Below, in pieces: positions 7,971 to 47,169 of a DNA stretch of 64,000 nucleotides (position 1 is the first letter of the stretch; the number at the start of each line of letters is the position of its first letter). The DNA comes from Candidatus Saccharibacteria bacterium RIFCSPHIGHO2_12_FULL_41_12 (GTDB lineage Bacteria > Patescibacteriota > Saccharimonadia > Saccharimonadales > 2-12-FULL-41-12). The translations under genes were made by a program, and so were the position numbers. Where the stretch lies: assembly GCA_001790445.1 (NCBI GenBank), contig MGCQ01000007.1:66608-130607 (forward strand), read 5' to 3'. Under the pieces are notes generated by a model. That model was not told the origin of the DNA. It did no database searches and saw only the letters and a list, made by a program, of their open reading frames with translations.

Positions 7971-8123
7971 GTTATTATCTATTTCTCATTTTAAACATCT
8001 TATTAATTCTATCAAAAATATGGTAATAGTGTTACATAAAAATATTGTAAAATTTATCAAAATTACTGATATAAATATCAAGTGTCTATCAGCTGTTTGG
8101 CGCTATCGTAGGATCAAATAAAT

Positions 8124-25096: not shown

Positions 25097-25666
25097 ATGG
25101 ACGCAATTGCCGAAGCTTTTAAATCAGTTCCCCGGGTGGATTTTGTGCCTGAATGGCTAAAAGATCATGTAAACGTAGACACTGCCTTACCCATTGGCGC
25201 TGGTCAGACTATTAGTCAGCCCAGCACTGTCCGGATGATGTTGGAGTGGCTTGGGGCACAACCAAGGGATAAAGTGCTCGATGTCGGGTCTGGGTCGGGC
25301 TGGACTTCAGCCTTGCTGTCTAATATCATCGGGTCAAAAGGCAAAGTATTTGCGGTTGAGAGGATACCCAAGTTGCTAGAACAAGGTAGAGAAAACTGCA
25401 AAAAAGTGGGCGCTTTGAACGTTCAATTTTTCCAAGCTGGCAAAAGCTTTGGTTTGCCCCTGCATGCGCCGTATGATCGGATACTGGTCAGTGCAGCAGC
25501 ACAAAAACTGCCTATAGAGCTACTGGATCAGCTAAAAGTCGGCGGCAAATTAGTCATCCCAATTGGACACGAAATATTAGAAATTAGTAAAATCTCTGAT
25601 AAAGATTATGAGACAAAATCACATCCAGGCTTTATATTCGTCCCTCTTAGTTTAGCCTGTCGTTAA
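25097..25666 (+). CDS. pcm: protein-L-isoaspartate O-methyltransferase
   Basis: TISQPSTVRMM, the SAM motif LDVGSGSGW, and a C-terminal FIFVPL. Confidence 0.9.
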   Translation: MDAIAEAFKSVPRVDFVPEWLKDHVNVDTALPIGAGQTISQPSTVRMMLEWLGAQPRDKVLDVGSGSGWTSALLSNIIGSKGKVFAVERIPKLLEQGRENCKKVGALNVQFFQAGKSFGLPLHAPYDRILVSAAAQKLPIELLDQLKVGGKLVIPIGHEILEISKISDKDYETKSHPGFIFVPLSLACR

Positions 25667-25694
25667 AAGACGGATCTTTTAGTTCTTTTTTATT
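25663..25694 (+). repeat. direct repeat copy 1: TAA stop plus hairpin plus T-tract module
   Basis: ttaaaagacggatcttttagttcttttttatt. The first 18 nt are identical to 28140-28157. AAAGA/TCTTT stem followed by T-rich tract. Confidence 0.7.
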
Positions 25695-25874: not shown

Positions 25875-27101
25875 ATGAGTAGTTCTACCGACAAGCAAGA
25901 ACAAGTATACCGAAAAACAATTCGTGTTTTGGTGGGTTCACAACTTATGGCCGGTGCAGGGCTGGCAGCAGGGATATCTGTTGGGGCTTTGCTAGCTGAG
26001 GAAATGACTGGCTCGACTGGAGCAGCTGGTTTGCCAGCGGCACTATTTACTTTGGGCTCAGCTATCGCTGCGGGACTCGTTGGTCGTATTTCCCAAAGCC
26101 ATGGTAGACGGATCGGGTTAGGTATTGGTTACTCCGTAGGCGCTACAGGTGCAGCTGGCATTGTTCTGGCAGCCATACTAGGTAGTCTTCCTCTGCTGTT
26201 TGTCTCGTTACTCCTTTATGGCTCAGGCACAGCCACAAACCTGCAAGCTCGCTATGCTGGAGCAGACCTTGCCAAGCCGTCCAGAAGAGGCCGTGCAATA
26301 AGTACCGTTTTGGTTGCCACCACGCTGGGCGCGGTGCTCGGCCCAAATCTCATTGAGTTGACAGGATCAATTGCCGGATCACTTGGAGTCAGGGAGCTAG
26401 CCGGACCTTTCATGCTGGCTGTGCTTGCTTATGGGACTGCCGGCGTCGTAGTTTTTGTCTTTATGAGACCTGACCCTCTACTGATGGCTCGCGCCTTGGC
26501 ATCACGTGTTTCTCAGCAGACCAAAGACCAAAAGCAAACTACCAGCGACACTGATTCACGGCGCACAGTTAGGCTGGCAGCCGCCGCCATGATAATCACG
26601 CAAATGGTCATGATCGCAATAATGACCATGACACCGATACATATGAGATCACATGAGCACAGTTTGGCGGCCGTAGGATTGATAATTTCGATTCACATAG
26701 CAGCAATGTACCTGCCATCTCCTCTGACAGGGTTACTTGTCGATCGTTTTGGATATCGTCGTATTCTAGCTTCGGGTGGGCTAATTTTGCTCGCAACTGG
26801 AATCTTAGCCTCGGTCGCTCCCGCAAGTTCTATGATTCTACTGGGTGTTACGCTTGGTCTACTCGGGCTTGGTTGGAACTTTGGGCTCATCGCTGGAACT
26901 GCGGCTGTCACGCAGGCCACACCGCTTAGCCGGAGGGCCAGCACTCAGGGTTCGGTTGATCTAGCGGTTTCTCTGGCTGGCGCAACTGGTGGAATGGGAA
27001 GCGGCTTCATTATGGCTAGTAGTAGTTTTGCGATGCTAGGGCTGGTAGGAGGCTTGCTAGGGCTGGCAATTCTGCCACTGCTTATCGCTTATCGCGAGTA
27101 A
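25875..27101 (+). CDS. MFS transporter
   Basis: 408 aa with about 12 Gly/Ala-rich hydrophobic segments. Hand-counted lines give about 50-58% GC versus about 40% in flanking genes. Long antisense ORFs are consistent with high GC. Confidence 0.8.
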   Translation: MSSSTDKQEQVYRKTIRVLVGSQLMAGAGLAAGISVGALLAEEMTGSTGAAGLPAALFTLGSAIAAGLVGRISQSHGRRIGLGIGYSVGATGAAGIVLAAILGSLPLLFVSLLLYGSGTATNLQARYAGADLAKPSRRGRAISTVLVATTLGAVLGPNLIELTGSIAGSLGVRELAGPFMLAVLAYGTAGVVVFVFMRPDPLLMARALASRVSQQTKDQKQTTSDTDSRRTVRLAAAAMIITQMVMIAIMTMTPIHMRSHEHSLAAVGLIISIHIAAMYLPSPLTGLLVDRFGYRRILASGGLILLATGILASVAPASSMILLGVTLGLLGLGWNFGLIAGTAAVTQATPLSRRASTQGSVDLAVSLAGATGGMGSGFIMASSSFAMLGLVGGLLGLAILPLLIAYRE

Positions 27102-27145
27102 TGAATCCCAATTATCAACAAAGGTCAGTTCTTTAACAGATATCG

Positions 27146-28117
27146 CTAACTGTCTGTAGGCTGGCCGTTGTTAAAGTCGAGCGTATTGTATGGTGCTTCC
27201 GAGCAAAGATCACTAATTATGTTTGGCTTACTTGGGTTCACTACAACTTTCCCTAGCGCCTTAATTTTGTTTGCATCGTTGCTAGGGAACATGCCAAACC
27301 AACAGGATGCAAACCACTCATGGGATTGATACTGATTGTGTATGCCAGCCCATTTACTATTTTTAGAAATTTCGTTTCGACTACGGTAGTCATATACGCC
27401 AAAGTCGAATCCAAAATTCTTGGTAGCAGGGAAGCCAATGGCAGTAGCTACTACATCGCCTGACTTGAACTTTGTACGAGCGAAGGGAAGATTTGGATCT
27501 GTGCGAGTGTCGTCTTTCTTTGGCTCTGGAGTCGTATCGGCGATTTTCTGAAATGCAGGAGCCAAGGTGTATAAATGATCAAAGCGAAAGGCAATACCAC
27601 AGTCAGTCTCAAAGGTCAGCAAGTACTGCAAAGTTGAGGGGTTACCCTCATAATACCTAGTCAAGCTGACAAGTGTTGCATCGATTGGCATTTTTACTTC
27701 CACTTTGCCGTCAGGGCTGTTGTCTATTCTAAAACCACCATGTGGTTTGTAATTATAACCACGGTAAGATCCGGGCATGAGCAAGCTGGTTACTTGAGCT
27801 ATATCAACAGGTGTTTGGTCAAAGATAAAAGGATTTTTGCATTTTGTGGGTTTGCCACTTTGGGTAAACCACTGGAGCTCCTTTTCGTTGAAGGCCCATT
27901 TTACGGGGTCGCTATTTTTAGATTCGGAAGACGTAGGTTGACTACTTTGAGATGATTTGTCTTTGCTTTTATACACATTGAACCCAGCAAAACCAACTCC
28001 TGCAACAACAGCAAGGACAATAATGATCAGAAAAAGATGAGCAAAGCCTGATTCATGTGTTTGTTTTTGACACATACAATAACTATATGAAAAGTCTATT
28101 ATAATTACAACACCCAT
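27146..28117 (-). CDS. membrane-anchored/secreted hypothetical protein (start possibly Met15 at 28075)
   Basis: N-terminal TM (LFLIIIVLAVVAGVGFAGF), a Ser-rich linker, and an unassigned C-domain of about 250 aa. Confidence 0.5.
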   Translation of the reverse strand: MGVVIIIDFSYSYCMCQKQTHESGFAHLFLIIIVLAVVAGVGFAGFNVYKSKDKSSQSSQPTSSESKNSDPVKWAFNEKELQWFTQSGKPTKCKNPFIFDQTPVDIAQVTSLLMPGSYRGYNYKPHGGFRIDNSPDGKVEVKMPIDATLVSLTRYYEGNPSTLQYLLTFETDCGIAFRFDHLYTLAPAFQKIADTTPEPKKDDTRTDPNLPFARTKFKSGDVVATAIGFPATKNFGFDFGVYDYRSRNEISKNSKWAGIHNQYQSHEWFASCWFGMFPSNDANKIKALGKVVVNPSKPNIISDLCSEAPYNTLDFNNGQPTDS

Positions 28118-28122
28118 ATTTT

Positions 28123-28140
28123 TGGCTGGGGATGAGGGAT
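28123..28140. repeat. distal copy of the tRNA-Gln 3'-end core (outermost att-like site)
   Basis: Exact 18-mer, followed directly by TAAAAGACGGATCTTTT. Confidence 0.8.
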
Positions 28141-28268
28141 TAAAAGACGGATCTTTTTTGTTCTTTTTATTTATTTTTGAATATTAGATCAAATTTGTGT
28201 ATAGCTTGGGTTACAGTAAAGTAAGGGGGTAGACAAAGACGTATATTTATAGTAGAATATTAATAATT

Positions 28269-28784
28269 ATGTTACGAATTGCACCGTTTGAGCAGTGTAT
28301 TGTATATGAGGAGGCCAACAGCTGCGCTTTTGCAAAACAATGTAAAGCCCCCAAAAAATGCGTAGGTATTAGTATTGTGGTCGACGAAGATCATTTTCAA
28401 ACTGCTAAATCACTAGGTCTGAAACCTGAGATAGATCGGCTAATTCATTTTACGGGTAGTGATCCCGAGACAAATGTTACTAAAATTTCTTTGTGCGAGC
28501 CAGCACTTACTGACCCAAGAATTGTTGGAGGAGTAAAGTTACTTATGGCAGAAGTTGATGCAGATGCATTTGTTGAACCTTCTGAGCTGCCTGCTCTGCG
28601 AGAAGTTGAAGCAGTATACAGTGGACATCTAACAGATATTGATCAAGTTGCTACTGATAAAGGTTTGCAGGCAGTAGAGTTTGTAACAGGCTCGACTAGC
28701 AGTAGTTTCTATCCAACAGGGGACAGGCTTGCTGAAGAGGGTGGAAGACTAGTATTAGTGCCTATCTACGATTTCGAAAGATAG
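28269..28784 (+). CDS. hypothetical protein (between att-like copies 1 and 2)
   Basis: 171-aa ORF. No motif recognised. Confidence 0.45.
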   Translation: MLRIAPFEQCIVYEEANSCAFAKQCKAPKKCVGISIVVDEDHFQTAKSLGLKPEIDRLIHFTGSDPETNVTKISLCEPALTDPRIVGGVKLLMAEVDADAFVEPSELPALREVEAVYSGHLTDIDQVATDKGLQAVEFVTGSTSSSFYPTGDRLAEEGGRLVLVPIYDFER

Positions 28785-28800
28785 TCATTGATATTGTACT

Positions 28801-28818
28801 TGGCTGGGGATGAGGGAT
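28801..28818. repeat. second copy of the tRNA-Gln 3'-end core
   Basis: Exact 18-mer TGGCTGGGGATGAGGGAT. Confidence 0.8.
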
Positions 28819-28972
28819 ATCGGCTAAAGCCTCCTCCCTGCGGTGCTCGGAAAATGTGAAAGTAAACTTTCCCGCCTTCCTGCGCTCCTCGTCCACCGAA
28901 CCCCTTTTGGCGGTTCGTACACCTTATTCTCAATCAGTTTTAATCTTAGAACTAAAGCCCTAACATTAAAAC

Positions 28973-28994
28973 TGGCTGGGGATGAGGGATTCGA
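28973..28994. repeat. third copy of the tRNA-Gln 3'-end core (22 nt identical to the tRNA copy)
   Basis: TGGCTGGGGATGAGGGATTCGA is identical to 38679-38700. Confidence 0.8.
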
Positions 28995-29157
28995 CCTACC
29001 TTTGGCAGGCCCGAAACTTCGCGATTGCCAAACCAGTTGGCATCGGAAGGTTTCCTTGCAGACTGCCGACTGGCAGTCCTCACCCCGATCTTTTTCGGGG
29101 GTCAAACCCATTTCTCAACAAGTATTTTCTAAAACCCAAATGGGTTATAAAAAATAC

Positions 29158-29178
29158 TGGCTGGGGCTAGTGGATGAG
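29158..29178. repeat. degenerate core-like copy
   Basis: TGGCTGGGGctagtggATGAG matches 9 + 5 nt of the core around a 7-nt interruption. Confidence 0.35.
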
Positions 29179-29631
29179 TTTCAGGAAGATTTTAGACAGG
29201 TAACAGAGGTAGTGCGTCAAATAACCGGCTCTATCTATGCGTGAACGTACCTACCCCCCACTACATTATTGAAGGGGGATATACCTACTGTAATTTGCAT
29301 ATTTAGCTTATTAATGTTCTCACGGTTTGCGTTAACCTACAGGGGTAGAAGCCCAAAACACTTGCTCTGTGCGTAAAAAATGTTTCTACCGGGGGGGTCT
29401 AGATATTTCCAAGCGGATCAGGGCGTTGTACATTGTCGAATAATGTGCGATGACCCTGCTTGGAAGTAGTGTGTCGTACAAGAACATGTGCGACATATAT
29501 TGGCTTAGTAAAATCTAAAATCTCTAACAAACAATTCACGTCTTATCAAACATACCCCTACCTTCTCTTTTGCTCTTCTGTGTTCTGTATTCGGTTCGCG
29601 CGCAAAAAATATTTGATTTGGCACTATAATT

Positions 29632-32600
29632 ATGGATGTTATGGCTAAGAAAACCACCGCAGTACCAAATGAGCCGAATGATGACCAGTCTTTACCGCAA
29701 AAAGTAAACCTGATACTTTTGCGTATCTTAAATGATGCCGCACCAGAGTTGGGGGATTATTACTTAGGGGCTCTACACACTCTCGCAAACACGTCTAACC
29801 CCGATAGAATTGCCCAGTCCGCACATAGTCTGCGTGAGCTGATACAGCAACTTCCAAGGCGACATAAAAAAGCCGCTACAAAAGTTACTCCACCCGGATT
29901 GCTTTCGGGAGCTTCGAATATTTATAAGACCCGTGATGTATGGAATTCGCTAACCATTGATGACTTCAACACCCCTACTGTTCGTCCTACGGACGTACAG
30001 GCGGAAACTAAGTATTACCGCGAATCAAAAAAGTTATGGGAGTTTATAAACAAATACTACCCTACGAACGAAGAAGAACGGCTGAGAATGGAGGCTGGGA
30101 TCAGGAAAGACACGCCCTTACCACCTAAGCTTCAAAAAATGAGGATGCAAGAATGGAGTAGGTATTACGCAAAGTTTGCAGATATTTCTCATCATGGCTC
30201 AACACCAACCGATGATTTTGACCAATTAGTAGAGTCATTTGAAGATTTTTTAATCAGAGAACTAGACCCACAAACAACAAAGGATTTTGCTGAAGTAGCG
30301 AAACTGATTAAAGAAATCGAGCAAGGTGACCAAAAGAACCTAGAGAAGTTGATGAAATTGGTGCGCTCAAATCGCCCAAACTACGACCACTTCTTCAACA
30401 ATATATCAGCTTCAGTATGGCTTGAAATTTTAGAAGCAAATAAGCTTTTAGATCATATAGACGAGCCTTACCCTGCGGAAGAAGGTGGATTCTATATTTT
30501 GCCGTGGGTTCCGGCAAATTACTATCAAAAAATAGCTAGAGAAAAACCTGATAAAATTATCAAGATATTAAAAGCTGTTATCGGCACCGAAAACGTCCGT
30601 GCTCAAGACCAGATACTTGAGATTGCGAAAGAGTTACCAAGCGATTCACTTGGGTTTATAGTCGCTCAACTTTCAAAATGGCTTAAGGGTAGATATGCGA
30701 ACCGTGGCCTAGTACCGTTTAGGGTTGGCGACCTTATTGTATATTTATGCGAGTCAGGTTATTTCGAACAGTCTATGATTGCATTCAAAGCACTCTTCGA
30801 GCTATTAGAACCTGAAGATAACGAAAGAAGTAAGTACTTCAGACATCCAGACACGCTAACATCGGACAGTTCTTACAAGACTTTGCTCCAACAAGTTCTG
30901 CCGAGTTTAATGAAAGTAAACCCAACAGAAACTGTTAAAGAGCTGTCCATTTTATTGAATGACGGGTTAACCATTGAACGAGAATCAGGCAAAGAAATAG
31001 ACGGAATTATTTATGACGGCTCTACTATTTGGCGACCTGATATTAAAACAAAACAGTACGATCATGAACCCTGCGATATATTGGTTACAGTTATTTATAA
31101 ATACGTGCATGAAATTGTCTCCTCCGAAGAAGAACTGGAGCAAATAGTCATTGAGCTTAGGAAATATAAATTTGAAGTATTCCACCGAATAGCTGCAACT
31201 TTGCTTGACGATGCTAAATCAGAAAAACTTAAAGCAATTAGAAAAGAGATAGTAGATAAAATTGGCGACCCAAGTAAGAAAGACTTTATCGTCAGGGAAT
31301 CAAATGTTATCCCTGCAATAACCGTTGATGATCTCAAAGAGCTCTCTGTTAAACAAATAATTGAAAAATTTAACAGCTGGGATCCAAAAGAGGAACTTCC
31401 TGGTTTTGGTAGGTCAAAATCTGATATTGGATTCGAGTTAAATAAATATCTGGCTGATAAGCCTGATGATGCTTTGACGTTTCTCAAAAGCGAGCTACCA
31501 ATTAACGATGAATACTTAAGCCATATATTTAGGGGCATTAGACAAGCTTCCGATAATAAGAAAATTAATATCAAATGGGAAGAGTTCATAAAATATGCCC
31601 AGAAATATATTTCATCCGCTAACGTAAGAAGCTCTACAGGTAATGAGCGTCAGAATCTCTTTGATCTTATTAATTCAATAGATTCTGGAATTAACCATGA
31701 TCACATAAAAATTCAAGATGTTAAAACTTTTGAAGATTTAGTTGCTATTTTCAGCTCATTAACAGATCACGTTGAACCGAGTTTAGAAGATGAAGATAAA
31801 TATACCAAGAGTTCTAGATCGGAAGCGGTTACTCTTGCGATAAACACCGTGAGAGGTGAAGCTGTCGGTGCGCTAATAGATATACTCAAAAATATATCTA
31901 GAAACAACAAGGAAGCATCCGCCATACCTAAAGAAAAGAAAGATGCGGTGTACGCAAAGCTTAAGGAAAAGCTGGACATAAAAAAAGAACCTACCCTAGC
32001 GGTTCGAACTGTATTTTCAAGAGAATTGCCGTTTTTAGCCTACGATAATCCAGAATGGGTAGCACAGAATCTTGAGCTGATTTTTCCACTCGATGAATCT
32101 AAGGCTAAGTATTTTGAAAATGCTATGGAAACATTCATAACGTTTACCAAAGTATTCCCCGAAGTATTTCCAGTCATTAACCCCTACTTAGTTGAATATA
32201 TGGATAGAATCAAAAAAGACGAAATTAAAAACCCGGATGAGAATACTGTCAATCATGTAGTGGGTCAAATCTTACTTATGCATATTGATAACTTTGTAGA
32301 TTTCGAAAATCCGGCAATGAAGAAGTTATTTGAAATGCCTGATGCCTTTCTTGAAGAAGTCATGGATTTCTTTGGTCGAGGTATCAAACAAACTGACGGC
32401 GACAGGCAAAAATTAATAATACATAAAGCTAAGAAATACTGGGAACAAAGACTAGCTAGTAAAAACGTTAAGGAATCTGAATATGCAAAGTTCGGCTGGT
32501 GGATGCGTGCTAATGCTACTGATGACTGGATAATTAAGCATTTTATCGATGCACTTTCTCATTCAGCTAAAATGGACGCATTATATTTTGTGGCAGACGA

Positions 32601-32835
32601 ATTGATTGTATTAGCAGAGACAGACCAAAGTAAAGCATCGAAAATATTTCTGGAAGTTGTTACAACTCAAGACAAAGACAACTTAAATCATATGCTCTAC
32701 ACGCCAGAGCTCTCGACGATGCTTAAAGAAATGCTTGCAAATGGAGGTACTGAAACTAAAAAAAATGCAACAAGGACTATCGATAAGCTTTGTGATATGG
32801 GCTATTACAATTATCAAGAACTGATCAGCTCTTGA
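29632..32835 (+). CDS. large hypothetical protein (1067 aa), predicted helical-repeat-like, no recognisable catalytic motif
   Basis: Uninterrupted 3.2-kb ORF, Lys/Glu/Leu-rich with amphipathic-helix character. I found no P-loop, nuclease or protease motif by eye. TATAAT at 29625-29630 lies 1 nt before the first ATG. Confidence 0.6.
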   Translation: MDVMAKKTTAVPNEPNDDQSLPQKVNLILLRILNDAAPELGDYYLGALHTLANTSNPDRIAQSAHSLRELIQQLPRRHKKAATKVTPPGLLSGASNIYKTRDVWNSLTIDDFNTPTVRPTDVQAETKYYRESKKLWEFINKYYPTNEEERLRMEAGIRKDTPLPPKLQKMRMQEWSRYYAKFADISHHGSTPTDDFDQLVESFEDFLIRELDPQTTKDFAEVAKLIKEIEQGDQKNLEKLMKLVRSNRPNYDHFFNNISASVWLEILEANKLLDHIDEPYPAEEGGFYILPWVPANYYQKIAREKPDKIIKILKAVIGTENVRAQDQILEIAKELPSDSLGFIVAQLSKWLKGRYANRGLVPFRVGDLIVYLCESGYFEQSMIAFKALFELLEPEDNERSKYFRHPDTLTSDSSYKTLLQQVLPSLMKVNPTETVKELSILLNDGLTIERESGKEIDGIIYDGSTIWRPDIKTKQYDHEPCDILVTVIYKYVHEIVSSEEELEQIVIELRKYKFEVFHRIAATLLDDAKSEKLKAIRKEIVDKIGDPSKKDFIVRESNVIPAITVDDLKELSVKQIIEKFNSWDPKEELPGFGRSKSDIGFELNKYLADKPDDALTFLKSELPINDEYLSHIFRGIRQASDNKKINIKWEEFIKYAQKYISSANVRSSTGNERQNLFDLINSIDSGINHDHIKIQDVKTFEDLVAIFSSLTDHVEPSLEDEDKYTKSSRSEAVTLAINTVRGEAVGALIDILKNISRNNKEASAIPKEKKDAVYAKLKEKLDIKKEPTLAVRTVFSRELPFLAYDNPEWVAQNLELIFPLDESKAKYFENAMETFITFTKVFPEVFPVINPYLVEYMDRIKKDEIKNPDENTVNHVVGQILLMHIDNFVDFENPAMKKLFEMPDAFLEEVMDFFGRGIKQTDGDRQKLIIHKAKKYWEQRLASKNVKESEYAKFGWWMRANATDDWIIKHFIDALSHSAKMDALYFVADELIVLAETDQSKASKIFLEVVTTQDKDNLNHMLYTPELSTMLKEMLANGGTETKKNATRTIDKLCDMGYYNYQELISS

Positions 32836-32860
32836 TTAAATATCCCTTAGGCTATACCAC

Positions 32861-33289
32861 TTATAAACTTGGTGGGGTTTGTGCTGCAACATCCGCAGAT
32901 ACTTCAGCTCTAAAAGCTTCAACCTGGTCGGCAAATTCATCGCCAAACGCACCTCGTGCGAGCTGAGTTGCCTGATAAACAGAAAACATTCGATACATTA
33001 CTGGAGGGTAATTAAGAACACTCGCAGGCATTGGTTCACCACCGAAACCGCTTACCCCTTTATTACAGTCATAGGCTAGAAGTTCAGTAGCCATAACAAA
33101 GCCCATAGGAACTACACCACCTTTAATACGGTCAGCCAAAAGAGTGGCTAAATCAACAGTAAGCCGATAGTCGCTCGTACCAAGTTCATCGCCCTCAGTA
33201 GCAACACGCTCTTGCAAGTGCGCCAAAAGCTGTTCGCCTGTTCCAACTAATCGATCTTCTTGTTCGCCACCGTTTAAATGTTCTGACAT
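32861..33289 (-). CDS. acidic hypothetical protein (142 aa), downstream partner of the 557-aa ORF
   Basis: Starts 22 nt after the stop of the 557-aa gene with AGGAGA upstream. No motif recognised. Confidence 0.5.
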   Translation of the reverse strand: MSEHLNGGEQEDRLVGTGEQLLAHLQERVATEGDELGTSDYRLTVDLATLLADRIKGGVVPMGFVMATELLAYDCNKGVSGFGGEPMPASVLNYPPVMYRMFSVYQATQLARGAFGDEFADQVEAFRAEVSADVAAQTPPSL

Positions 33290-33311
33290 ATTATCTCCTA
33301 TAAATTACTAA

Positions 33312-34985
33312 TTAAGCTGCACTTTGTTCTAGACGACTCATGTAAGTTCTAACAACAACGTCAGTTCTTTGAGTAGTAGCTTCATCAAATGGATCGCCAA
33401 CTGGTTCAACAACTATTCTGATTTTTGGTGTGTTTTTCTTACTATCGCTTGTACGTCTTACTTCTTTTGGTAGTGGACCCCAAACAGATGTACCATCATG
33501 ACCAAAGAAATTATCCAGATCAGCACTTGAGTCATAATCACGTCGTTCGGTTTCTAATATCACGCTTACGCCCGTAGCTTCGTCCTGCCATATTGCAGGT
33601 TGGCGACTACCATACTTACTGTATCGCTGATATTTTGCTTTTGGTGCATCGTCCTTATCACCTAAATAGTCTTCTAAGTAATCAGCAACGTCCTGTTCAC
33701 TCACAGGAATGCCTAATTTATCGCAAACTGCTTTTACATCTACAAAGAAGTAGCCATCGCGTTCGGTTTGGTTGACCGGAATCTCAATTGTAGCATTACG
33801 CAAACCACGCTTCATGCCTAGGGCACTAGCTAGTTGATCTTCAACTTGATCGCCTGCATAAGCAGCAGAAAGGGTTAATCCAACACCGTCTTTGGTAATT
33901 TCTACCTCGCCATTGGTTTTATGGAAGTGTCCAGCACCATCGTAGTCAAAACCAAAGTGGACGCTTTCACTGGTAGCTTTGGCTCTTTTCTTTTGTAGTT
34001 GGTTCCATTTGTCCTGAACCTTGCTAGTAATTCTATTACTAACGAACTCACGCATATCACCGCTACGAGCCGCTAACGAGAATAATGCTCCGCCTAGGCT
34101 GCCGTGTGCGTCTGCAAATGCTTTATCATTGTATTCAAGAGCGGTTTCGCCACCAGGCGTAGGGTAAGAACCGTCGCCATACATAACAAGTGCGTGCTCA
34201 AGTTGTTCAGGGTGAGCAAAGAGGATACCTTTTCTGTACTCCGAAACGTTAAAGTCGGTAATTTCCAGTTCTTTCGGGTCTAACTGCTCACGAGTTAAGG
34301 CAGAAATGCCATTCGGATTAGTCATAAGCCATTCTTCATAATTAGCCAAGTCAACAGTCATAGGTTCGCTGTCTTCACCTTGTACTTTCTGTGTACGAGT
34401 CATTTTGGCAGGAGTCTTACGACCTGCTTCATCTACTGTGTACTCAAAACGATCAGTTATTGTTGGCTCAATGTAGCCCCAAGTTAGGCGTTCTGTTAAA
34501 TAGCCTTCATTATCATAAGTAAGAAACTCTTGGTAGCGTGGGCGGTGTCTGTTGTACGAGTGTTCACCTTCAATAAGTTCAAACTTTACCATTCGTCCGT
34601 TAGCATCAAATTGATAGTTAATCCCGTCATAAAGTGGTGTGCTACCTTTAGCGTCAGTTTGTCCTTCATACGCACCAGTTGTGTATGTAAGACCTTCGCC
34701 ATCTTCCTTATAATGCCAAGGTAATCGACGTTTGTGTGGATTAGTAGCAAATATGTCGTGTATCTGGTTTTTTGTGGCTGGTTTGATAGGTTCTGAAAGA
34801 GCAGTAACGAGTTCAGGAAGAACTTCTGCCACAACTGCTTTGGTAGCCTCATCATGAAGCCTTAGAGGCCACATAGTATCACGAGGCATATTTATTTGAG
34901 GAAAGCGAGATTGAAGCGTAATAGCCTCGTCTACAAACTCACCGCCTTGAGGAAAACCTTCTGGATTTACACCTGATGTAGTCAT
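33312..34985 (-). CDS. hypothetical protein (557 aa) with a short YD-repeat-like segment
   Basis: Residues about 118-190 contain YQFDANGRMV, LTYDNEGYLTERL and FEYTVDEAGRKT, which resemble RHS/YD repeats. The rest is unassigned. No signal peptide. Confidence 0.5.
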   Translation of the reverse strand: MTTSGVNPEGFPQGGEFVDEAITLQSRFPQINMPRDTMWPLRLHDEATKAVVAEVLPELVTALSEPIKPATKNQIHDIFATNPHKRRLPWHYKEDGEGLTYTTGAYEGQTDAKGSTPLYDGINYQFDANGRMVKFELIEGEHSYNRHRPRYQEFLTYDNEGYLTERLTWGYIEPTITDRFEYTVDEAGRKTPAKMTRTQKVQGEDSEPMTVDLANYEEWLMTNPNGISALTREQLDPKELEITDFNVSEYRKGILFAHPEQLEHALVMYGDGSYPTPGGETALEYNDKAFADAHGSLGGALFSLAARSGDMREFVSNRITSKVQDKWNQLQKKRAKATSESVHFGFDYDGAGHFHKTNGEVEITKDGVGLTLSAAYAGDQVEDQLASALGMKRGLRNATIEIPVNQTERDGYFFVDVKAVCDKLGIPVSEQDVADYLEDYLGDKDDAPKAKYQRYSKYGSRQPAIWQDEATGVSVILETERRDYDSSADLDNFFGHDGTSVWGPLPKEVRRTSDSKKNTPKIRIVVEPVGDPFDEATTQRTDVVVRTYMSRLEQSAA

Positions 34986-35079
34986 AAGCGCATATAATAC
35001 TACAATATTAGATATTAGTCAATGATTTTTAGAAGTTATTTTTTGCGTTTAACAGTAGTCAAAAACGAAGTTCGGTTTT

Positions 35080-35271
35080 TTACTTCTGTTTTATATTCCT
35101 AACAGCAGCGATTGGGTCAAACTGTCCGCTTTGTACGGCGATTATATATTCGCGAGCAAGTCCACTAAGCTGGTCGATAAGTTCATCAACTTCCTCGTCT
35201 GTCATGTCTTTGGCTTCTTCGCCCATGATCTTACGAGCTTCTTCGACTGTAATTCTTGAATTAGAGTCCAT
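35080..35271 (-). CDS. small acidic hypothetical protein
   Basis: 63 aa. Overlaps the upstream DUF805-like gene by 11 nt. Confidence 0.35.
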   Translation of the reverse strand: MDSNSRITVEEARKIMGEEAKDMTDEEVDELIDQLSGLAREYIIAVQSGQFDPIAAVRNIKQK

Positions 35272-35668
35272 CGCTAAGAAAAGTTATAAATAAACCTGTT
35301 AGGTATGTCAGAAGAATAGCGATTACAACGATCAAGCCAATCCGCCATCCCTTAGCGCGAATGCCGAACATGTAGAATGCTTTGCTTGCATGTTCCGGCT
35401 TGCTAGGAGCAAAAAGGGCGTATGGCAGTAACAGGATTGTCGTCGGTGGAATTAACGCGAGTGTCCACCAACCGCTATGTCCGGTGTTTCGCAGTCGCCG
35501 AGCCGTCCAGATTATGATCGGAATAACGAGTATGAGGCTCAGTGGTTTTGCAAAGCCAGCAATAAACTCATCACTTCCGGCAACAGTATTGCAGAGCGCA
35601 AATGTTGGAAAAACAAACAGCATGGACGCTGTATATGATTTTGCATTCATGGTTGATACTTTTTTCAT
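35261..35668 (-). CDS. DUF805-like inner membrane protein
   Basis: ARRLRNTGHSGWW matches the DUF805 signature (RRLHD.G.SGWW). Three or four TM helices. AGGAGG SD. Confidence 0.6.
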   Translation of the reverse strand: MKKVSTMNAKSYTASMLFVFPTFALCNTVAGSDEFIAGFAKPLSLILVIPIIIWTARRLRNTGHSGWWTLALIPPTTILLLPYALFAPSKPEHASKAFYMFGIRAKGWRIGLIVVIAILLTYLTGLFITFLSDGL

Positions 35669-35915
35669 TCGGCCTCCTACTTGTTAAAAAGAGGCCAATT
35701 AAAAAAGGACAACCTCTCTAGATTGTCTAGACCAACACAGGTTGTAACCTATGCTTTCGAGAAGTTGCCCATTTTTGGTTACAACCAATCGAATATGATT
35801 GGGCTTTACAAGCCGTGTTGATCTAGACCCCTTAATCATATCAAGAAATGCTGTGAAAAAGGACTACTGTTATGAAATAACTGGACGAAAAACTATAATC
35901 ATTAACAGGTAAGTT

Positions 35916-36419
35916 ATGTCAAAACAGCATATATCTGATGAGGTGAAGATAGTTGAGATGCCGCAACAAGTGGCAGAAGCTCTACATGCTCAAATAATTG
36001 AAACAAAAAACATAGCTCTTGATTTAAAGAATCAGCTCGAGAAGATGCAAAACGATTTAAATACCGTAAAGAATATTGTCAAATCGACAAGTATTAGCAG
36101 GTCGGCATGGGTAAGGCTTAGGTATAATAAACGGCTTAGCGAGATAGTTGTTTCTGGGTATTATATTATGAAGTTCGAGAGTACCTTAGAGGGCGAACTA
36201 CTCCGTTACATGTTCACTAAGCGTGGCAAACCTTTAGATGACCGTTTTCAGTACTCCGAATTCATCAAGGAATTCAAGATAGCAGGCATAGAAAAATTAC
36301 ATAGTGCCAGAGCAATCAGTAAGATCGCATACAATTTAAGAGATCGATTCAGGAAAGAACTTGGGTACGATCAGCTACATGTTGACGCAAAAGAGTTCTA
36401 CTGGTTAAACGTACGCTAA
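35916..36419 (+). CDS. putative transcriptional regulator with C-terminal OmpR/CadC-like winged helix
   Basis: Coiled-coil N-terminus. The C-terminal pattern GELLRYMF..GKPL...ISKIAYNLRDRFRKEL...FYWLN resembles trans_reg_C wHTH domains. Confidence 0.45.
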   Translation: MSKQHISDEVKIVEMPQQVAEALHAQIIETKNIALDLKNQLEKMQNDLNTVKNIVKSTSISRSAWVRLRYNKRLSEIVVSGYYIMKFESTLEGELLRYMFTKRGKPLDDRFQYSEFIKEFKIAGIEKLHSARAISKIAYNLRDRFRKELGYDQLHVDAKEFYWLNVR

Positions 36420-36565
36420 CAGATGTAATTCTTGTCTGTATCTAATTCAGACAATGCTTTTGCTTTAATGCGTTTATGCAGGACAAGCCAAGTCAATTAA
36501 GCAAGTCAGAACTAGAGGCACTAGTTCAATTTTCCTGCTACTTGCAGAAATTGAAAGGTATGTAG

Positions 36566-37105
36566 ATGACATCTAGAAAATCAAATCAAACTAAAGGATT
36601 GCGACCAATGCAGCTCCGCTTTTTTAGTATGTTAGGAATGGAGAAGCCGAAGCCGATCCCGCCACAGCTAGCCCTAATATATGGATTTCCCCTAGCAGGG
36701 ATTATTTCTCAGCTACTATTTTGGTGGGGTTTAGAAAAAAGAGATGACGGGTTCATCTTCAAGACTGAAAAGGATTTTATATCAGAGCTCGGCATCACAT
36801 CAGCTCAGCAAAGGTTAGCAATAAAAAAAGGTAAAAAGCATGGTTTCCTTACTGTTAAGAGAATGGGCGTACCAGCAAAGAGGCATTACAAAATAGATTT
36901 TGATCTATTGGTCAAAACTACAATAAAAGAGGCTGCTGAAAAGAAAGTCACTTTGTCTATTAGCCATTACAATAACCGCGAAAAGGCCATGTCGCCTAAC
37001 GGTCAAAATAGCAGAACTACTACAGAAAGCACTCCAGAAAGCACGACTAGAAAAGGAAGTACTTTATCCACAGCCGACATAATAGCTAAGAAAATGGTAG
37101 AATGA
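36566..37105 (+). CDS. hypothetical protein, possible wHTH/replication-organiser-like
   Basis: FKTEKDFISELGITSAQQRLAIKKGKKHGFL looks like an HTH. Ser/Thr-rich tail. Assignment is weak. Confidence 0.4.
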   Translation: MTSRKSNQTKGLRPMQLRFFSMLGMEKPKPIPPQLALIYGFPLAGIISQLLFWWGLEKRDDGFIFKTEKDFISELGITSAQQRLAIKKGKKHGFLTVKRMGVPAKRHYKIDFDLLVKTTIKEAAEKKVTLSISHYNNREKAMSPNGQNSRTTTESTPESTTRKGSTLSTADIIAKKMVE

Positions 37106-37241
37106 AAAAGCTTTTCCGGTTTAAAACTATATCGCAGCGATTTTTTATTTCTGCTCTTAATGGGCGGTTGTGTTCAGAAAGACGCTGCAAAGTTGTTGGA
37201 CTGGAAAAGCCACAACCGTCCATTTTTAGTTAAGGAGTTTC

Positions 37242-38765
37242 ATGAAGGCAATAATATTGGCGAGAGTATCGACCAAAGACCAAGAGGATAACAACTCTAT
37301 ACCATCTCAAACACGCCGTCTTCATGAGTACGCTGAAAAGTTCGAACTTATTGTTCTCGAGACTTATCAACTCGTAGAATCCTCGACTAAAGCAAACCGC
37401 CGAAAGTTTAACGAGCTTATTAATCGAATAAGAGAATCTGATGAGAAAATAGCACTTATCGTAGATACGATTGATCGCTTGCAAAGAGATTTTCGCGAGT
37501 CGGTCATGTTAAATGAGCTACGACTTGAGGGCAAAATTGAGCTTCACTTTGTAAGAGAGAATCTGATTATCAATCAGGTATCGAACAGTGCGGATATTCT
37601 CCGTTGGGATATGGGGGTAATGTTTGCAAAAAGCTATGTAACCCAGCTAAGTGATAACGTCCGCCGTAGTTTTGAGCAAAAGCTGAAGAATGGCGAGTGG
37701 CTGGGAAGAGCACCGTTTGGCTATAGTAACGAAGACACGCCCGAGGGTAAAAAATCGATTGTGCCTGAACCAACACAGGCAAAGATAGTGGGAAGCATGT
37801 ACCAATGGTACGCAACTAGCTCATATTCTATGAAAGAGATTCGCAAGAAACTTATTGAAGATTACGGTCTAATCAAGTCTGTTAGCAATATAGATAAGAT
37901 CTTAAAGAATCCCTTTTACTATGGCGAGATGAAAATAAAGAATGAGTTGTACCCTCATAAGTACGAGCCTGTAATTACCCGAGGTATCTTCGATCAAGTC
38001 CAAGCTGTAAAAATCGGATTCAACAAGAAAGCTTTTAAGTATGCTGGAATCCCTTATTACTATCGAGGCCTAATGCAATGCGGCGATTGTGCTTGCAGTA
38101 TTACGCCAGAAAAGAGCAAAGGGCATACTTATTATCATTGTACGCAGTATAAGGGCAAGCACGGGGCTGCATATTTGCGAGAGGAAGACCTAACCGAGCA
38201 GTTGATGGTTGCTTTTGAGGCTATCAAGCTAACACCAGAACAATATGATGAAGTAACGACAGTTCTAAAAACCGTACATAAGGATAAGGTTAAATACAAA
38301 GCCCAGCATGTGGGGCATTTGCAAACAGAGCTAACGAAGTATCAGCAACGCCTTGAGAAATTATATGAATCGCACCTTGATAATGATATAGACCCAGAAT
38401 TCTATAAACGAAAGGCTATTGAATACAGGTCTACTCGTGATGCTATCAAGACAAAGCTAGATGCCACCGATAGAGCCGATGACGATTTCTATTTTGCAGT
38501 TGATGGGCTAATTCGAATGGCTCAAAGAGCACCTGAATTACTGGCACGTTCTGAAATGGAGCATAGGAGACGGCTTATTAACTTGGTACTTCAGAACCTT
38601 ACGGTCAAAGACAGAGAACTTCGGTGGGAGTACAGAAAACCGTTCGATACATTGTACCGAACGGCTAAAACTTCAAATTGGCTGGGGATGAGGGATTCGA
38701 ACCCCCGATGGCGGAACCAGAATCCGCTGCCTTACCACTTGGCCAATCCCCATCGACAAGAGTAA
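37242..38765 (+). CDS. large serine recombinase (integrase); the integrated form has its 3' end extended through the antisense of the tRNA
   Basis: Resolvase catalytic N-terminus AIILARVSTKDQ, a recombinase domain, a Cys-rich zinc ribbon (CGDCACS...YYHCTQY), and a coiled-coil region. The last 29 codons are antisense of tRNA-Gln. Confidence 0.9.
   Translation: MKAIILARVSTKDQEDNNSIPSQTRRLHEYAEKFELIVLETYQLVESSTKANRRKFNELINRIRESDEKIALIVDTIDRLQRDFRESVMLNELRLEGKIELHFVRENLIINQVSNSADILRWDMGVMFAKSYVTQLSDNVRRSFEQKLKNGEWLGRAPFGYSNEDTPEGKKSIVPEPTQAKIVGSMYQWYATSSYSMKEIRKKLIEDYGLIKSVSNIDKILKNPFYYGEMKIKNELYPHKYEPVITRGIFDQVQAVKIGFNKKAFKYAGIPYYYRGLMQCGDCACSITPEKSKGHTYYHCTQYKGKHGAAYLREEDLTEQLMVAFEAIKLTPEQYDEVTTVLKTVHKDKVKYKAQHVGHLQTELTKYQQRLEKLYESHLDNDIDPEFYKRKAIEYRSTRDAIKTKLDATDRADDDFYFAVDGLIRMAQRAPELLARSEMEHRRRLINLVLQNLTVKDRELRWEYRKPFDTLYRTAKTSNWLGMRDSNPRWRNQNPLPYHLANPHRQE
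38679..38752 (-). tRNA. tRNA-Gln (anticodon CUG), CCA encoded
   Basis: Hand-folded minus-strand sequence: TGGGGAT TG GCCAAGTGGTAAGGC A GCGGA TTCTGGT TCCGC CATC GGGGG TTCGAAT CCCTC ATCCCCA G CCA. It has a 7-bp acceptor with U1-A72 (typical of bacterial tRNA-Gln) and a TTCGAAT T-loop. Confidence 0.9.
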
Positions 38766-38812
38766 TTATATCAAAGAATGAGCCACATGGTACAATAAAT
38801 GCATTAACAATT

Positions 38813-38951
38813 AAAGTATCAAGAGTGTAGAGAGGGATCTAGCCCGACGACCTACCAGCAACCCTTTCAGTTGGGTGCTAAATCTAGTCCTGCATGCAGG
38901 AAAGATATGAAGAACTCAAATCCTTTCTTGCAAACCCAGGAGGAAGGATAT
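38813..38951 (+). promoter_or_regulatory. SAM-I (S-box) riboswitch with SD-sequestering hairpin, controlling metK
   Basis: UAUCAAGAG...GAGGGA...GCCCGACGA...GCAACC...GGUGCUAAAUC...AAAGAUA matches the SAM-I core. ATCCTTTCTT (38920-38929) can pair with GAGGAAGGAT (38940-38949), covering the metK SD. Confidence 0.85.
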
Positions 38952-38955
38952 TTTT

Positions 38956-40065
38956 ATGCCAACAATAACAAAGAAAACCAGCGAATCTGTCTGTGCGGGG
39001 CACCCAGACAAGATCGCTGACCAAATCAGCGACGCCATAGTCGACGAGGTGCTTAAGCGTGACCCAAATGGTCGCACAGCCGTGGAGACTCTAGTTGCCA
39101 GAGACAGAGTAGTCCTAGCGGGGGAGGTCAATACAACTGCAAAGGTAGATTTTGTATCCGTAGCACGTGAGCAGATCAAAAGACTTGGTTACACAGATCC
39201 ATCGTGGGGCTTCTCTGATGAATCTGTAATAGATAATCATATCCACGCTCAATCACCAGAAATATCCGTCGGTGTCGATGATTTCGGAGCAGGCGATCAA
39301 GGCATAATCTACGGCTACGCTACTAACGAGACAGACAAATATTTGCCCACGCCGATAGCCATTGCCCACGACTTGACCAGAGCTATAGACACCGCCCGCG
39401 AATCTGGTGTAATGCCACATCTACGGCCAGACGGCAAAGCGCAGGTAGTGATCAAATATATTGATAACAAACCATCCAAAGTAGATCACGTGACTGTCGC
39501 CGTGCCACACGATCCGCGTCTGTCACTGGCCAAAATCCAAGAAGATTTACTCAAGCATGTGATTACACCAATCTTGGGGAAGTATGGTTTTAACGTGCCA
39601 AAAAACGGGTTAGTGGTCAATGGCACAGGTGTCTGGCATACCCCTGGCCCTAAAAGTGATGCGGGGCTGACCGGTCGCAAGATTGTGGTTGATGGCTATG
39701 GGGGATTAGCCCATGTTGGCGGTGGAGCCTTTAGTGGCAAAGACCCCAGCAAAGTCGACAGATCAGCAGCCTATGGTGCGCGTTATATTGCCAAAAACAT
39801 CGTTGCCAAAGGGCTGGCGGACGAAGTGGAGATAGGGCTGTCGTATTTTATCGGAGCCAAAGAGCCAGTGCAATTTTCTATTGATACATTTGGCACTAAC
39901 AAAGTTCCAACCGACAAAATCCGCGCATTTGCAGTCAAATTACTCAATCCATCAGTTAAAAACATCGTTGAAACCCTAGATCTCAAAAGACCAATTTATT
40001 TGCAAACCGCCTCCTACGGCCACTTTGGTAGAGAAGAATTTCCTTGGGAAGTAATAAAAAAATAG
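38956..40065 (+). CDS. metK: S-adenosylmethionine synthetase
   Basis: GHPDKIADQISDAI, GAGDQGI and GGGAFSGKDPSKVDRSAAY signatures. Confidence 0.97.
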   Translation: MPTITKKTSESVCAGHPDKIADQISDAIVDEVLKRDPNGRTAVETLVARDRVVLAGEVNTTAKVDFVSVAREQIKRLGYTDPSWGFSDESVIDNHIHAQSPEISVGVDDFGAGDQGIIYGYATNETDKYLPTPIAIAHDLTRAIDTARESGVMPHLRPDGKAQVVIKYIDNKPSKVDHVTVAVPHDPRLSLAKIQEDLLKHVITPILGKYGFNVPKNGLVVNGTGVWHTPGPKSDAGLTGRKIVVDGYGGLAHVGGGAFSGKDPSKVDRSAAYGARYIAKNIVAKGLADEVEIGLSYFIGAKEPVQFSIDTFGTNKVPTDKIRAFAVKLLNPSVKNIVETLDLKRPIYLQTASYGHFGREEFPWEVIKK

Positions 40066-42039: not shown

Positions 42040-42050
42040 CCATCACAACG

Positions 42051-42204
42051 CCTTGTCCTGCTTTCTGGCATAGCCAGAAACTCTGACAAGTCTCTTGGCA
42101 TAGAATAACTTTTTCTTCTGCGGTATTCACCTACACGGTACCATATGTACGGCTTGCTCCATTCCTCAAAGAGAAAAGTTATTCTATACTCAAGTGTGAA
42201 GGTT
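42051..42204 (+). repeat. about 150-bp structured intergenic repeat, copy 1 (after the helicase gene)
   Basis: Mostly identical to 47018-47169 outside a divergent centre, by manual alignment. Internal hairpins are TTCTGGC/GCCAGAA and a stem of about 20 bp (catagaataacttttt / aaaagttattctat). Confidence 0.8.
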
Positions 42205-46999: not shown

Positions 47000-47017
47000 C
47001 CCAAAATCTCCACACCA

Positions 47018-47169
47018 CCTTGCCTGACTTCTGGCAGAGCCAGAAACTCTGACAAGGCTCTTGGCATACAATAACTTTTTCTTCTGCGGTATTCACTTCA
47101 CCGTATTGTAGATACGGCTTGCTCCATTCCTCAAAGAGAAAAGCTATTCTATGCTCAAGTGTGAAGGTT
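47018..47169 (+). repeat. about 150-bp structured intergenic repeat, copy 2 (after typA)
   Basis: See 42051-42204. Same orientation, and it begins 19 nt after the typA stop. Confidence 0.8.

Follow-up and report, generated by a model that had tools for sequence, protein, structure and literature searches.

A 64-kb stretch of contig MGCQ01000007.1 from Candidatus Saccharibacteria bacterium RIFCSPHIGHO2_12_FULL_41_12 (64,000 nucleotides, in the following called the window) carries an island at the gene for tRNA-Gln(CUG). This locus is a genuine integrative island that targets a tRNA and was probably built by accretion; it is driven by a large serine recombinase (LSR) with the element's own attachment site (attP) inside its coding sequence. 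We consider it likely that a 9,521-bp LSR island resides in the tRNA-Gln gene at its 3' end, with attP in the LSR open reading frame (ORF), and that three older units, here named U0, U1 and U2, have accreted outward of it. The features needed for the argument are the following, in window positions.

28123 to 28800, plus strand: U0, 678 bp, the outermost layer, with an 18-nt exact copy of the tRNA 3' end and a 171-aa ORF (28269-28784) of unassigned function.
28801 to 28972, minus strand: U1, 172 bp, with an 18-nt exact copy of the tRNA 3' end, a structured body and an A/U-rich hairpin adjoining U2.
28973 to 29157, minus strand: U2, 185 bp, with a 22-nt exact copy of the tRNA 3' end, a GC-rich multi-hairpin body and an A/U-rich hairpin adjoining attL.
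29158 to 29244, plus strand: predicted left attachment site (attL), made up of the core and a P' arm and encoding in frame the displaced native tail WLGLVDEFQEDFRQVTEVVRQITGSIYA*, as judged by translation and by homology to relatives.
37242 to 38765, plus strand: LSR gene, 507 aa, with the Pfam domains Resolvase, Recombinase and Zn_ribbon_recom and a PHROG integrase match (5e-62).
38679 to 38687, plus strand: core TGGCTGGGG of the predicted right attachment site (attR), antisense of CCA, the discriminator and the last five acceptor bases.
38679 to 38752, minus strand: intact tRNA-Gln(CUG) with encoded CCA (ARAGORN; Rfam tRNA, 61.4 bits), the predicted integration target and B' side of attR.

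A preliminary description of this DNA had proposed a 10.5-kb integrative island on the basis of an 18-mer, TGGCTGGGGATGAGGGAT. Our scan of the 64 kb confirmed exact copies at 28123, 28801, 28973 and 38679, all on the plus strand, and detected no further copy in the window with up to three mismatches. The copy at 38679 had been described as the antisense of the 3' end of an intact tRNA-Gln. ARAGORN and Rfam agree on the intact tRNA, and the 18-mer corresponds, as reverse complement, to its last two T-loop bases, the 3' strand of the T-stem, the 3' strand of the acceptor, the discriminator and the encoded CCA. The copy at 28973 follows the tRNA gene exactly over 22 nt and with 83% identity over 41 nt. 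One may ask whether such repeats arose by chance or belong to a dispersed repeat unrelated to mobility, and the bare 9-mer TGGCTGGGG does occur once more, at 7696. The probability of this explanation is virtually nil, since shuffling gives an expectation of 0.02 copies of the 18-mer against the four observed, and these are co-oriented within 10.6 kb, anchored on tRNA-Gln and without other copies in the 64 kb. The repeats are att-type sequences derived from the tRNA 3' end. The arrangement corresponds to that of the tRNA islands recognised by Islander, with the intact tRNA at one end, co-oriented 3'-end fragments at the other (29158 with 9 bp, 28973, 28801 and 28123) and an integrase gene, the recombinase at 37242-38765, between them. 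Pfam domains also bear out the statement that the interval ends in a large serine recombinase gene, and searches of the island ORFs with Pfam, PHROG, PADLOC and NCBIfam yielded neither housekeeping nor phage structural matches, as had been suspected. The general proposal of an integrative island at tRNA-Gln with an LSR is therefore supported.

In the LSR, the catalytic domain (PF00239, residues 3-153, E 3e-16) is followed by the C-terminal domains PF07508 at 177-255 and PF13408 at 274-321. The residues A7 R8 V9 S10, the zinc-ribbon residues C280, C283, H299 and C300, and W480 are invariant in an alignment of 34 homologues. A tyrosine-recombinase domain was not detected among the island ORFs by Pfam; the serine recombinase is the only one. 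The preliminary description did not remark that the LSR ORF continues through the core and the complete antisense tRNA-Gln, where residues 480-507 (28 residues, WLGMRDSNPRWRNQNPLPYHLANPHRQE) are encoded. The search for homologues delivered 1,747 sequences at E <= 1e-20. Their C-termini have the pattern ...KKPFD...W(L/Q)G in common, after which comes either a tail read from an antisense tRNA (WLGMRDSNPRSRDQNPVPYHLANPQ in the case of tRNA-Gln, other patterns for other tRNAs) or a native tail of the 'VDxFQE' type, exemplified by WLGIVDVFQEE, WLGLVVVFQEDMPF and WLGLVDDSRTL. In one homologue (P0011) the tail, ...NWLARRDSNTFLLAGDEGFEPPIMGPEPTALPLG, first crosses a truncated tRNA-like 3' fragment and after it another antisense tRNA, this one complete; att-type fragments can accordingly pile up on the tRNA-proximal side too.

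Read from 29158 in the frame that the core dictates, the window translates to WLGLVDEFQEDFRQVTEVVRQITGSIYA*, a tail of the native type that begins with WLGLVDEFQEDF. A degenerate copy of the repeat had been reported at this place, and it is present (29153-29175, 78% identity over 23 nt, with exact sharing limited to the 9-mer TGGCTGGGG at 29158). Its reading frame yields the native-type tail, and therefore we regard 29158 not as a decayed 18-mer but as the displaced half of the LSR 3' end, that is, attL. With the native tail stranded at attL, it follows that attP lies inside the 3' end of the LSR gene, within its last ~25 codons. Integration would thereby exchange the native LSR tail for the 28 residues read off the antisense tRNA.

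Related loci (given with the prefix L) were collected in a scan of genome records, in which 598 stretches matched and 532 encode an LSR relative, and in a scan of metagenomes, in which 600 matched and 513 encode an LSR relative. The best 80 loci of each scan were kept and, together with loci fetched earlier, 150 have an assessable LSR 3' end. In 101 of the 150 the LSR ORF overlaps an antisense tRNA, namely Gln (38 loci), Asn (31), Tyr (9), Arg (5), His (5), Trp (4), Leu (3), Asp (3), Glu (2) and Pro (1). Hosts of the LSR relatives include Saccharibacteria and other phyla of the Candidate Phyla Radiation (CPR), Chlamydiota, Dependentiae, Verrucomicrobiota and some Alphaproteobacteria, and the closest relatives in genome records come from metagenome-assembled genomes of Candidatus Saccharibacteria. 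IMG/VR holds distant LSR relatives only, with at most 38% identity. The PHROG matches of the island are confined to an integrase, a replication initiator and a membrane protein, which does not make a prophage; the lack of phage structural genes and the distance to the IMG/VR relatives argue for plasmid-like integrative elements.

The nearest comparison is offered by L010 and L012, whose LSRs are 76-77% identical to that of the window and whose islands measure 9.2 and 8.8 kb. On the right they are bordered by a tRNA-Gln overlapped by the LSR ORF, and on the left by TGGCTGGGG(C/T)TAGTGGATGAGTTACAGGAA, encoding WLGLVDELQESF, which has only 9 bp in common with the tRNA. Both share a module of DUF805, a small ORF and the recombinase with the window, while their cargo is different: HinfI restriction-modification and SIR2 plus DUF87 genes in L010, a reverse transcriptase and three more genes in L012. 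The same left junction as in the window occurs in L013, L015, L017, L093 and L094. A native LSR tail without any tRNA was found in L007/L008/L009, L173, L174 and L175. Of these, L175 is a circular SPAdes contig of 5,149 bp (78x coverage, 55-bp terminal overlap), which contains the native-tail LSR, a REP_ORF2-G2P replication gene and few others, and no tRNA; terminal overlaps indicating circularity were not found in L007, L008, L173 and L174. The attP core of L175, TGGCAGGGG, matches the 3' end of tRNA-Trp as used by L014, L016, L020 and L087, and therefore the short core appears to track the target tRNA. In L173 two elements stand in tandem, with LSR genes at 818-2311 and 6725-7384 and a P1.P'2 junction, where the following element, with its left end, completes the first LSR gene. 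The cargo between these LSR genes includes ThsB-TIR, a trypsin-like protease and a DpnII/MboI-type nuclease.

A 24-nt motif of the P' arm is seen at the left junction in related islands, and in unintegrated LSR genes it lies within the 3' end. When up to 4 substitutions were allowed, it was found 22 times on the LSR strand and once on the opposite strand over all loci, and exactly once in the window. This single match is the sequence at 29158, TGGCTGGGG-CTAGTGGATGAGTTTCAGGAAG, which has no mismatch to the motif (the portion from GGGG onward). The window attL is homologous to the attL of L010, L012, L013, L015, L017, L093 and L094 as well as to the 3' ends of the unintegrated LSR genes in L007, L173, L174 and L175, and has only 9 bp in exact agreement with attR. 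The sequences to the right of the 18-mers at 28123, 28801 and 28973 are without the P' motif. From this we delimit the recombinase element, in its predicted extent, at 29158-38678/38687 (9,521 bp), leaving U0, U1 and U2 all outside it.

The earlier delimitation of a single 10.5-kb unit bounded by exact 18-mers is not supported. In that model one island would reach from the 18-mer at 28123 to the tRNA, with the copies at 28801 and 28973 serving as alternative excision partners of the resident LSR. It accounts for the four exact co-oriented copies, the 18-22-nt copies reproduce the would-be half-site on the tRNA side, and in a circle joined at 28123 the LSR ORF would stop right after the core (GAT TAA). 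Nevertheless, we regard it as quite improbable. The P' motif, which marks attL or attP in every relative examined, is missing to the right of all three exact copies; L010 and L012 end at a P'-type site that shares only 9 bp with the tRNA; and homologues of U1 and U2 sit outside the islands in other genomes. Moreover, tRNA-type sequence on the right makes a site attB-like, and it is established for the Bxb1, phiC31 and A118 integrases that recombination between attB-like sites and attR does not take place. Of the two explanations that had been offered for the nested copies, repeated integration with decay of earlier elements is thus the better one, and a role as alternative excision partners is disfavoured by the missing P' motif.

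The crossover itself can be narrowed down by two relatives. In L013 and L017 the resident tRNA reads TGGCTGGGA..., compared with the attP-type TGGCTGGGG, and base 9 is G in attL and A in attR. To the left of TGG, the P and B arms diverge at once. Both observations together place the strand exchange within TGGCTGGG, the first 8 of the 9 core bases, which are antisense to CCA, the discriminator and four bases of the acceptor. Between genomes, attB shows no conservation in its left half.

The three outer units, with boundaries at 28123, 28801, 28973 and 29158, require an explanation of their own. U1 and U2 contain no ORF of note and fold with z-scores of -3.3 and -6.5, respectively, the U1 hairpin reaching -5.5. 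Homologues of U2 lie directly left of attL-type sites in L013 (1768-1956), L094 (5308-5494) and L087 (4714-4924, tRNA-Trp type), and U1 matches L017 5527-5579 with 79% identity over its first 52 nt, where the L017 stretch likewise borders immediately on an attL-type site to its right. The tRNA-like end of the units goes with the tRNA of the locus (Gln or Trp), from which it departs at 1-3 positions in L094 and L087; because of these mismatches, the mimic appears to be borne by the unit and not copied from the host. L087 contains two U-type units with nearly identical right-end hairpins. Upstream of the true tRNA-Gln of L013 (6540-6634), an exact copy of the 5' 22 nt of the tRNA is fused to a fragment resembling the U2 body, so a U-type sequence can also join a tRNA 5' fragment.

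Left-end fragments of this kind may also be thought of as tRNA 3' fragments displaced by lost tyrosine-integrase elements, which crossed over in the T-loop or T-stem and of which only the left ends were kept. About half of the tRNA islands show a crossover in the T-stem region that leaves 3' fragments, and tandem arrays are known (PMC4383910). Host-derived fragments would explain the absence of any mismatch in 3 x 18 nt, and the U2 copy runs on as a diverged tRNA 3' half, the 83% over 41 nt given above. Against this stands that no tyrosine integrase gene or remnant is present in 28123-29157, that precise excision leaves no remnant, and that random deletion would not repeat the same unit of mimic, body and hairpin in four genomes and at two tRNAs. 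In addition, the tRNA-like ends in L094 and L087 differ from the resident tRNA by 1-3 bases and so are not host-derived in these loci. On balance this explanation is improbable.

A function at the RNA level was considered as well. U1 and U2 could be small structured RNA genes, in the sense of the tRNA and ending in a mimic of the tRNA-Gln 3' end, with the repeats serving this RNA-level function. The strong folding favours this idea. In the minus-strand consensus fold of the four U2-type units, 11 pairs are compensated, with only G.U wobbles, whereas the plus strand shows a weaker energy, a covariation penalty and A.C mismatches; by eye, the 5' segment of the unit can pair with the tRNA-like 3' end. 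On the other side, promoter prediction found none for U1 and U2 and a terminator-type hairpin precedes each unit, Rfam has no matching family, covariation statistics cannot be firm with only four sequences, and the hairpins could equally act in single-stranded DNA. A covariance-model search of the window and 98 loci (~1.6 Mb) recovered the four training U2-type units only, all beside att-type sites, plus tRNA-Gln genes via the shared 3' end, and a joint alignment of U1-type and U2-type units gave no consensus structure. We consider an RNA gene somewhat unlikely as the explanation of the repeats; it can coexist with the accretion of elements if the RNA is carried by a mini-element. U2 was also examined as a transfer-messenger RNA (tmRNA) or as a tRNA with an insertion and was rejected as such, ARAGORN and Rfam being negative and the T-stem 5' strand not complementary. 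Three natures are conceivable for U1 and U2: that of a miniature non-autonomous element, of a small RNA carrying a tRNA-end mimic, or of a strand-specific structure in the DNA. Most likely, going by the homologous units that stand at different tRNAs in other genomes, they are not random debris but gene-less miniature members of conserved unit families, non-autonomous and mobilised in trans, and we infer that the small units originated as older insertions.

According to the simplest reading, tandem accretion, the LSR would have inserted the element into the extreme 3' end of tRNA-Gln(CUG), with the tRNA sequence regenerated intact. Each arrival would enter at the tRNA end, bring a new terminator hairpin and push the earlier ones outward, in the order U0, U1, U2 and then the recombinase element. 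The left end of each unit would be the tRNA-3'-end mimic and the right end of U1 and U2 the terminator-type hairpin. A hairpin within the LSR ORF (38638-38666) would then have come to stand where the former tRNA terminator was. The tail swap, transcription convergent with the tRNA gene and the perfect complementarity of the mRNA 3' end to tRNA-Gln may together damp the integrated LSR. The tandem in L173 and the unconserved B arms indicate that the enzyme can use a site with an arbitrary left half, including a resident P arm. The element, which looks active, is integrative and probably self-replicating, and the intact LSR together with the circular relative L175 makes present mobility of the window copy plausible.

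Arrays with several sites occur in other genomes. L017 contains four P'-type sites (4480-6000) and L094 three P'-type and two mimic-type sites (5308-7861), with single small genes between the sites; the array of L087 spans 3889-4925. In these arrays the sites are co-oriented and the genes lie mostly on the minus strand.

Several points weigh against our interpretation. The check for an empty tRNA-Gln site in relatives, which the preliminary description had suggested, was negative: exact-protein look-ups of metK and of the left-flank gene found none, and all other assemblies with the flanking genes, including the ENA contig ERZ4903070 k141_963181 (124.6 kb) and shorter contigs of related assemblies, are 100% identical to the window. 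A scan of metagenome contigs of the Joint Genome Institute with the 40-nt tRNA 3' half gave 0 matches, the four excised-form LSR proteins predicted for junctions at 29158, 28123, 28801 and 28973 are absent from a collection of 15 billion proteins, and no circular junction of the window element was found. A scan for dyad symmetry around the core in 12 attP and 8 reconstructed attB sites, by which the crossover dinucleotide was to be placed, showed no signal above background, and no candidate for a recombination directionality factor was identified for the element. Canonical serine integrases do not recombine attP with attR, and therefore accretion needs a relaxed use of the left half-site, for which the L173 tandem and the unconserved B arms are indirect support. 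If the crossover lies in the first 8 bases, ~30 nt of U0-U2 mimic match the resident tRNA without a mismatch. For these older units, the perfect identity of all three mimics is where a far-left crossover is weakest; a T-loop crossover made by another recombinase, which stays a live alternative, would account for it more readily. Finally, a regulatory role of the tail swap is pure inference. On the positive side, relatives supply a circular form (L175) and differing cargo at tRNA-Gln islands. Contigs of the same population end at 29266/29269, 29020, 38685 and 26888-26891; the ends at 29266-29269 fall ~110 nt within the element's border, at the point where the conserved P' arm that codes for the tail stops. 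Such contig ends might reflect co-existing variants with different cargo.

The element further contains the following features.

29426 to 29505, plus strand: conserved motif of two hairpins close behind the element's left border, seen in an alignment of 5 elements.
29632 to 34985, both strands: variable cargo of 1067 aa (plus), 142 aa (minus) and 557 aa (minus), of unassigned function after profile searches.
35080 to 35668, minus strand: DUF805 membrane protein (135 aa, Pfam) and a 63-aa ORF, a module common to related islands.
35916 to 37105, plus strand: two genes (167 aa and 179 aa) upstream of the LSR gene, assessed with PHROG.
38638 to 38666, minus strand: 13-bp hairpin followed by UUUUCUGU, 12 nt beyond the tRNA CCA, fold -18.1 kcal/mol, z -2.6.

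The 179-aa protein matches PHROG 9773 (replication initiation O-like, 3e-20) and a DnaD-like family (5e-14), and relatives carry REP_ORF2-G2P genes at the equivalent position. This region is a probable replication module, its 179-aa product resembling replication-initiation or helicase-loader proteins, which would support an episomal replication of the element. The DUF805 module was found by tblastn with 52-53% identity in L010 and L012, with matches also in L014 and L016. For the cargo genes, searches of PADLOC, NCBIfam and PHROG gave no usable match, only a sub-threshold one to pP_pnuc_1; the 1067-aa protein has a homologue of 1073 aa in L007 (47% identity). At the cargo position, relatives carry HinfI restriction-modification, SIR2 with DUF87, reverse transcriptase or ThsB-TIR genes.

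The hairpin at 38638-38666 lies antisense within the conserved LSR codons KPFDTLYRTA (KPFD...RTA), and an equivalent one is visible in the P arms of relatives. A simple terminator scan did not call it, hence its role as terminator is deduced from the fold, and we regard it as the probable tRNA terminator brought by the element. Hairpins adjoin every core on the tRNA-distal side (z -5.5 to -7.9), and one further hairpin is located inside the LSR ORF. On the chromosomal side of attL, a terminator-type succession of A-tract, hairpin and U-tract stands directly against the core in the window, L012, L013 and L094. The two-hairpin motif reads GGCGUYGUACAUUGUCGRAUAAUGUGCGAUGAC, then AUGUCGYAMAAG...UGCGAC, with invariant G.U pairs on the plus strand and 4 compensated pairs in five elements. 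It recurs in L010 (2330-2410), L012 (2876-2955), L014 (~7885-7960) and L016 (~7900-7975) and has no family in Rfam; a regulatory RNA is conceivable here, as is a structure associated with the element's origin.

Some neighbouring observations are added here. An Rfam scan of 27000-40000 at E <= 1 matched only the tRNA and an S-adenosylmethionine (SAM) riboswitch at 38813-38911 (plus strand, 49.1 bits, above the gathering score), which lies just past the tRNA 5' end and upstream of metK. A 28-nt repeat, TTAAAAGACGGATCTTTT..TTCTTTTT, is present at 25663-25690, as terminator of the protein-isoaspartate methyltransferase (PCMT) gene, and at 28140-28167, adjoining the outermost core at 28123. The pair brackets a gene for a major facilitator superfamily (MFS) transporter (53% GC; genome ~41%) and a 323-aa secreted-looking protein, which hints at a further insertion or at a rearrangement. 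When locus L001 was compared with the window by BLAST, a ~160-bp repeat with 89% identity emerged, 42044-42204 versus 47011-47169, unrelated to the island.

The LSR resembles the large serine integrases Bxb1, phiC31, A118/LI and TP901-1 as well as TnpX and TndX in domain order, catalytic Arg-Val-Ser motif, recombinase domain and zinc ribbon, and also in the use of a single enzyme and of predicted short att sites and in the position of the recombinase gene at the element edge. It differs from them in its target, the extreme 3' end of a tRNA, in the location of attP in its own ORF, in an attB whose left half is unconserved, with no dyad symmetry detected, and in its low identity (at most 38%) to relatives in the phage catalogue. 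Among tyrosine recombinases, Mx8 IntP becomes IntX on integration, an analogue for the proposed lower activity of the integrated LSR. Mx8 IntP and the SSV1 integrase likewise have the attachment site within the integrase gene, the C-terminus being changed in Mx8 and the gene split in SSV1; our enzyme, by contrast, belongs to the serine recombinases and takes its new tail from an antisense tRNA. According to the Islander authors, serine-family integrases are not known to target tRNA genes, and only the Mx8 and SSV integrases extend across attP (PMC4383910). In full-text literature on serine recombinases and tRNA in combination with Saccharibacteria, Patescibacteria or Chlamydiae, neither the clade nor the overlap of ORF and tRNA was found described, coverage being incomplete and a prior description possible.

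Accretion at one site has several known counterparts. Composite islands of the staphylococcal cassette chromosome (SCC) grow at the 3' end of rlmH by Ccr serine recombinases, with direct repeats of 15-18 bp and recombinase-less pseudo-SCC units. Accretion driven by a serine recombinase at a conserved gene's 3' end would be common to SCC and this locus, but the target here is a tRNA and not rlmH, and the LSR reaches only 61, 50 and 38 bits in the NCBIfam CcrA, CcrB and CcrC models against cut-offs of 700, 900 and 900. Cis-mobilizable elements (CIMEs), as in the accretion of the ICESt1-ICESt3 type, are att-flanked units without recombination genes that lie beside an autonomous element at the same site; they are kilobases long and derive from integrative and conjugative elements with tyrosine integrases. 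U0-U2 correspond to them in structure, having att-type repeat borders, no recombinase ORF and an autonomous element next to them, whereas U1 and U2 are 172-185 bp long, gene-less and structurally conserved. With integron cassette arrays, L017 and L094 have in common the alternation of single genes and recombination-type sites in one orientation, but IntI, attC and attI are lacking and the array lies at the element end far from the recombinase. Tycheposons of Prochlorococcus are, in the preprint passages that describe them, small, cargo-carrying, replication-competent and tRNA-integrating elements, in which each new integration displaces the older ones outward, partial tRNAs and degenerate remnants being left behind; a large serine recombinase is present in 27 of 937 (Hackl et al., bioRxiv 10.1101/2020.12.28.424599). 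The window array mirrors the successive integrations and scattered partial tRNAs of these passages, a likeness by description. The tycheposon hosts belong to another phylum and the recombinases are overwhelmingly of the tyrosine type, and the same passages do not report an overlap of recombinase ORF and tRNA.

Taking the loci together, we tentatively put forward a wider reading, which at present is rather less than probable. A widespread LSR clade in Saccharibacteria, other CPR phyla, Chlamydiota, Dependentiae, Verrucomicrobiota and some Alphaproteobacteria would use the CCA/acceptor end of tRNA genes as attB and carry attP in its own ORF. Integration and excision would toggle between two tails as a state switch, and the first ~9 attP bases would set the tRNA (TGGCTGGGG for Gln, TGGCAGGGG for Trp). 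Repeated insertion would build integron-like arrays, including structured mini-elements of 170-190 bp with a minus-strand fold that ends in a tRNA-end mimic.

For the window, the island boundary is redrawn and one plausibly functional element is set apart from three older layers. For inserting DNA unidirectionally, serine integrases are the principal tools, and in textbooks a tRNA target goes together with a tyrosine integrase. If true, a large clade of natural serine integrases directed at the 3' ends of tRNAs would broaden the rules of target choice, and a core that appears to track tRNA identity together with a C-terminus rewritten on integration suggests a simple self-regulating switch. 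If true, this would also be a main route by which symbionts with tiny genomes, such as CPR bacteria and chlamydiae, acquire and shuffle small cargo, to which restriction-modification, SIR2, TIR and reverse-transcriptase genes belong in the relatives.

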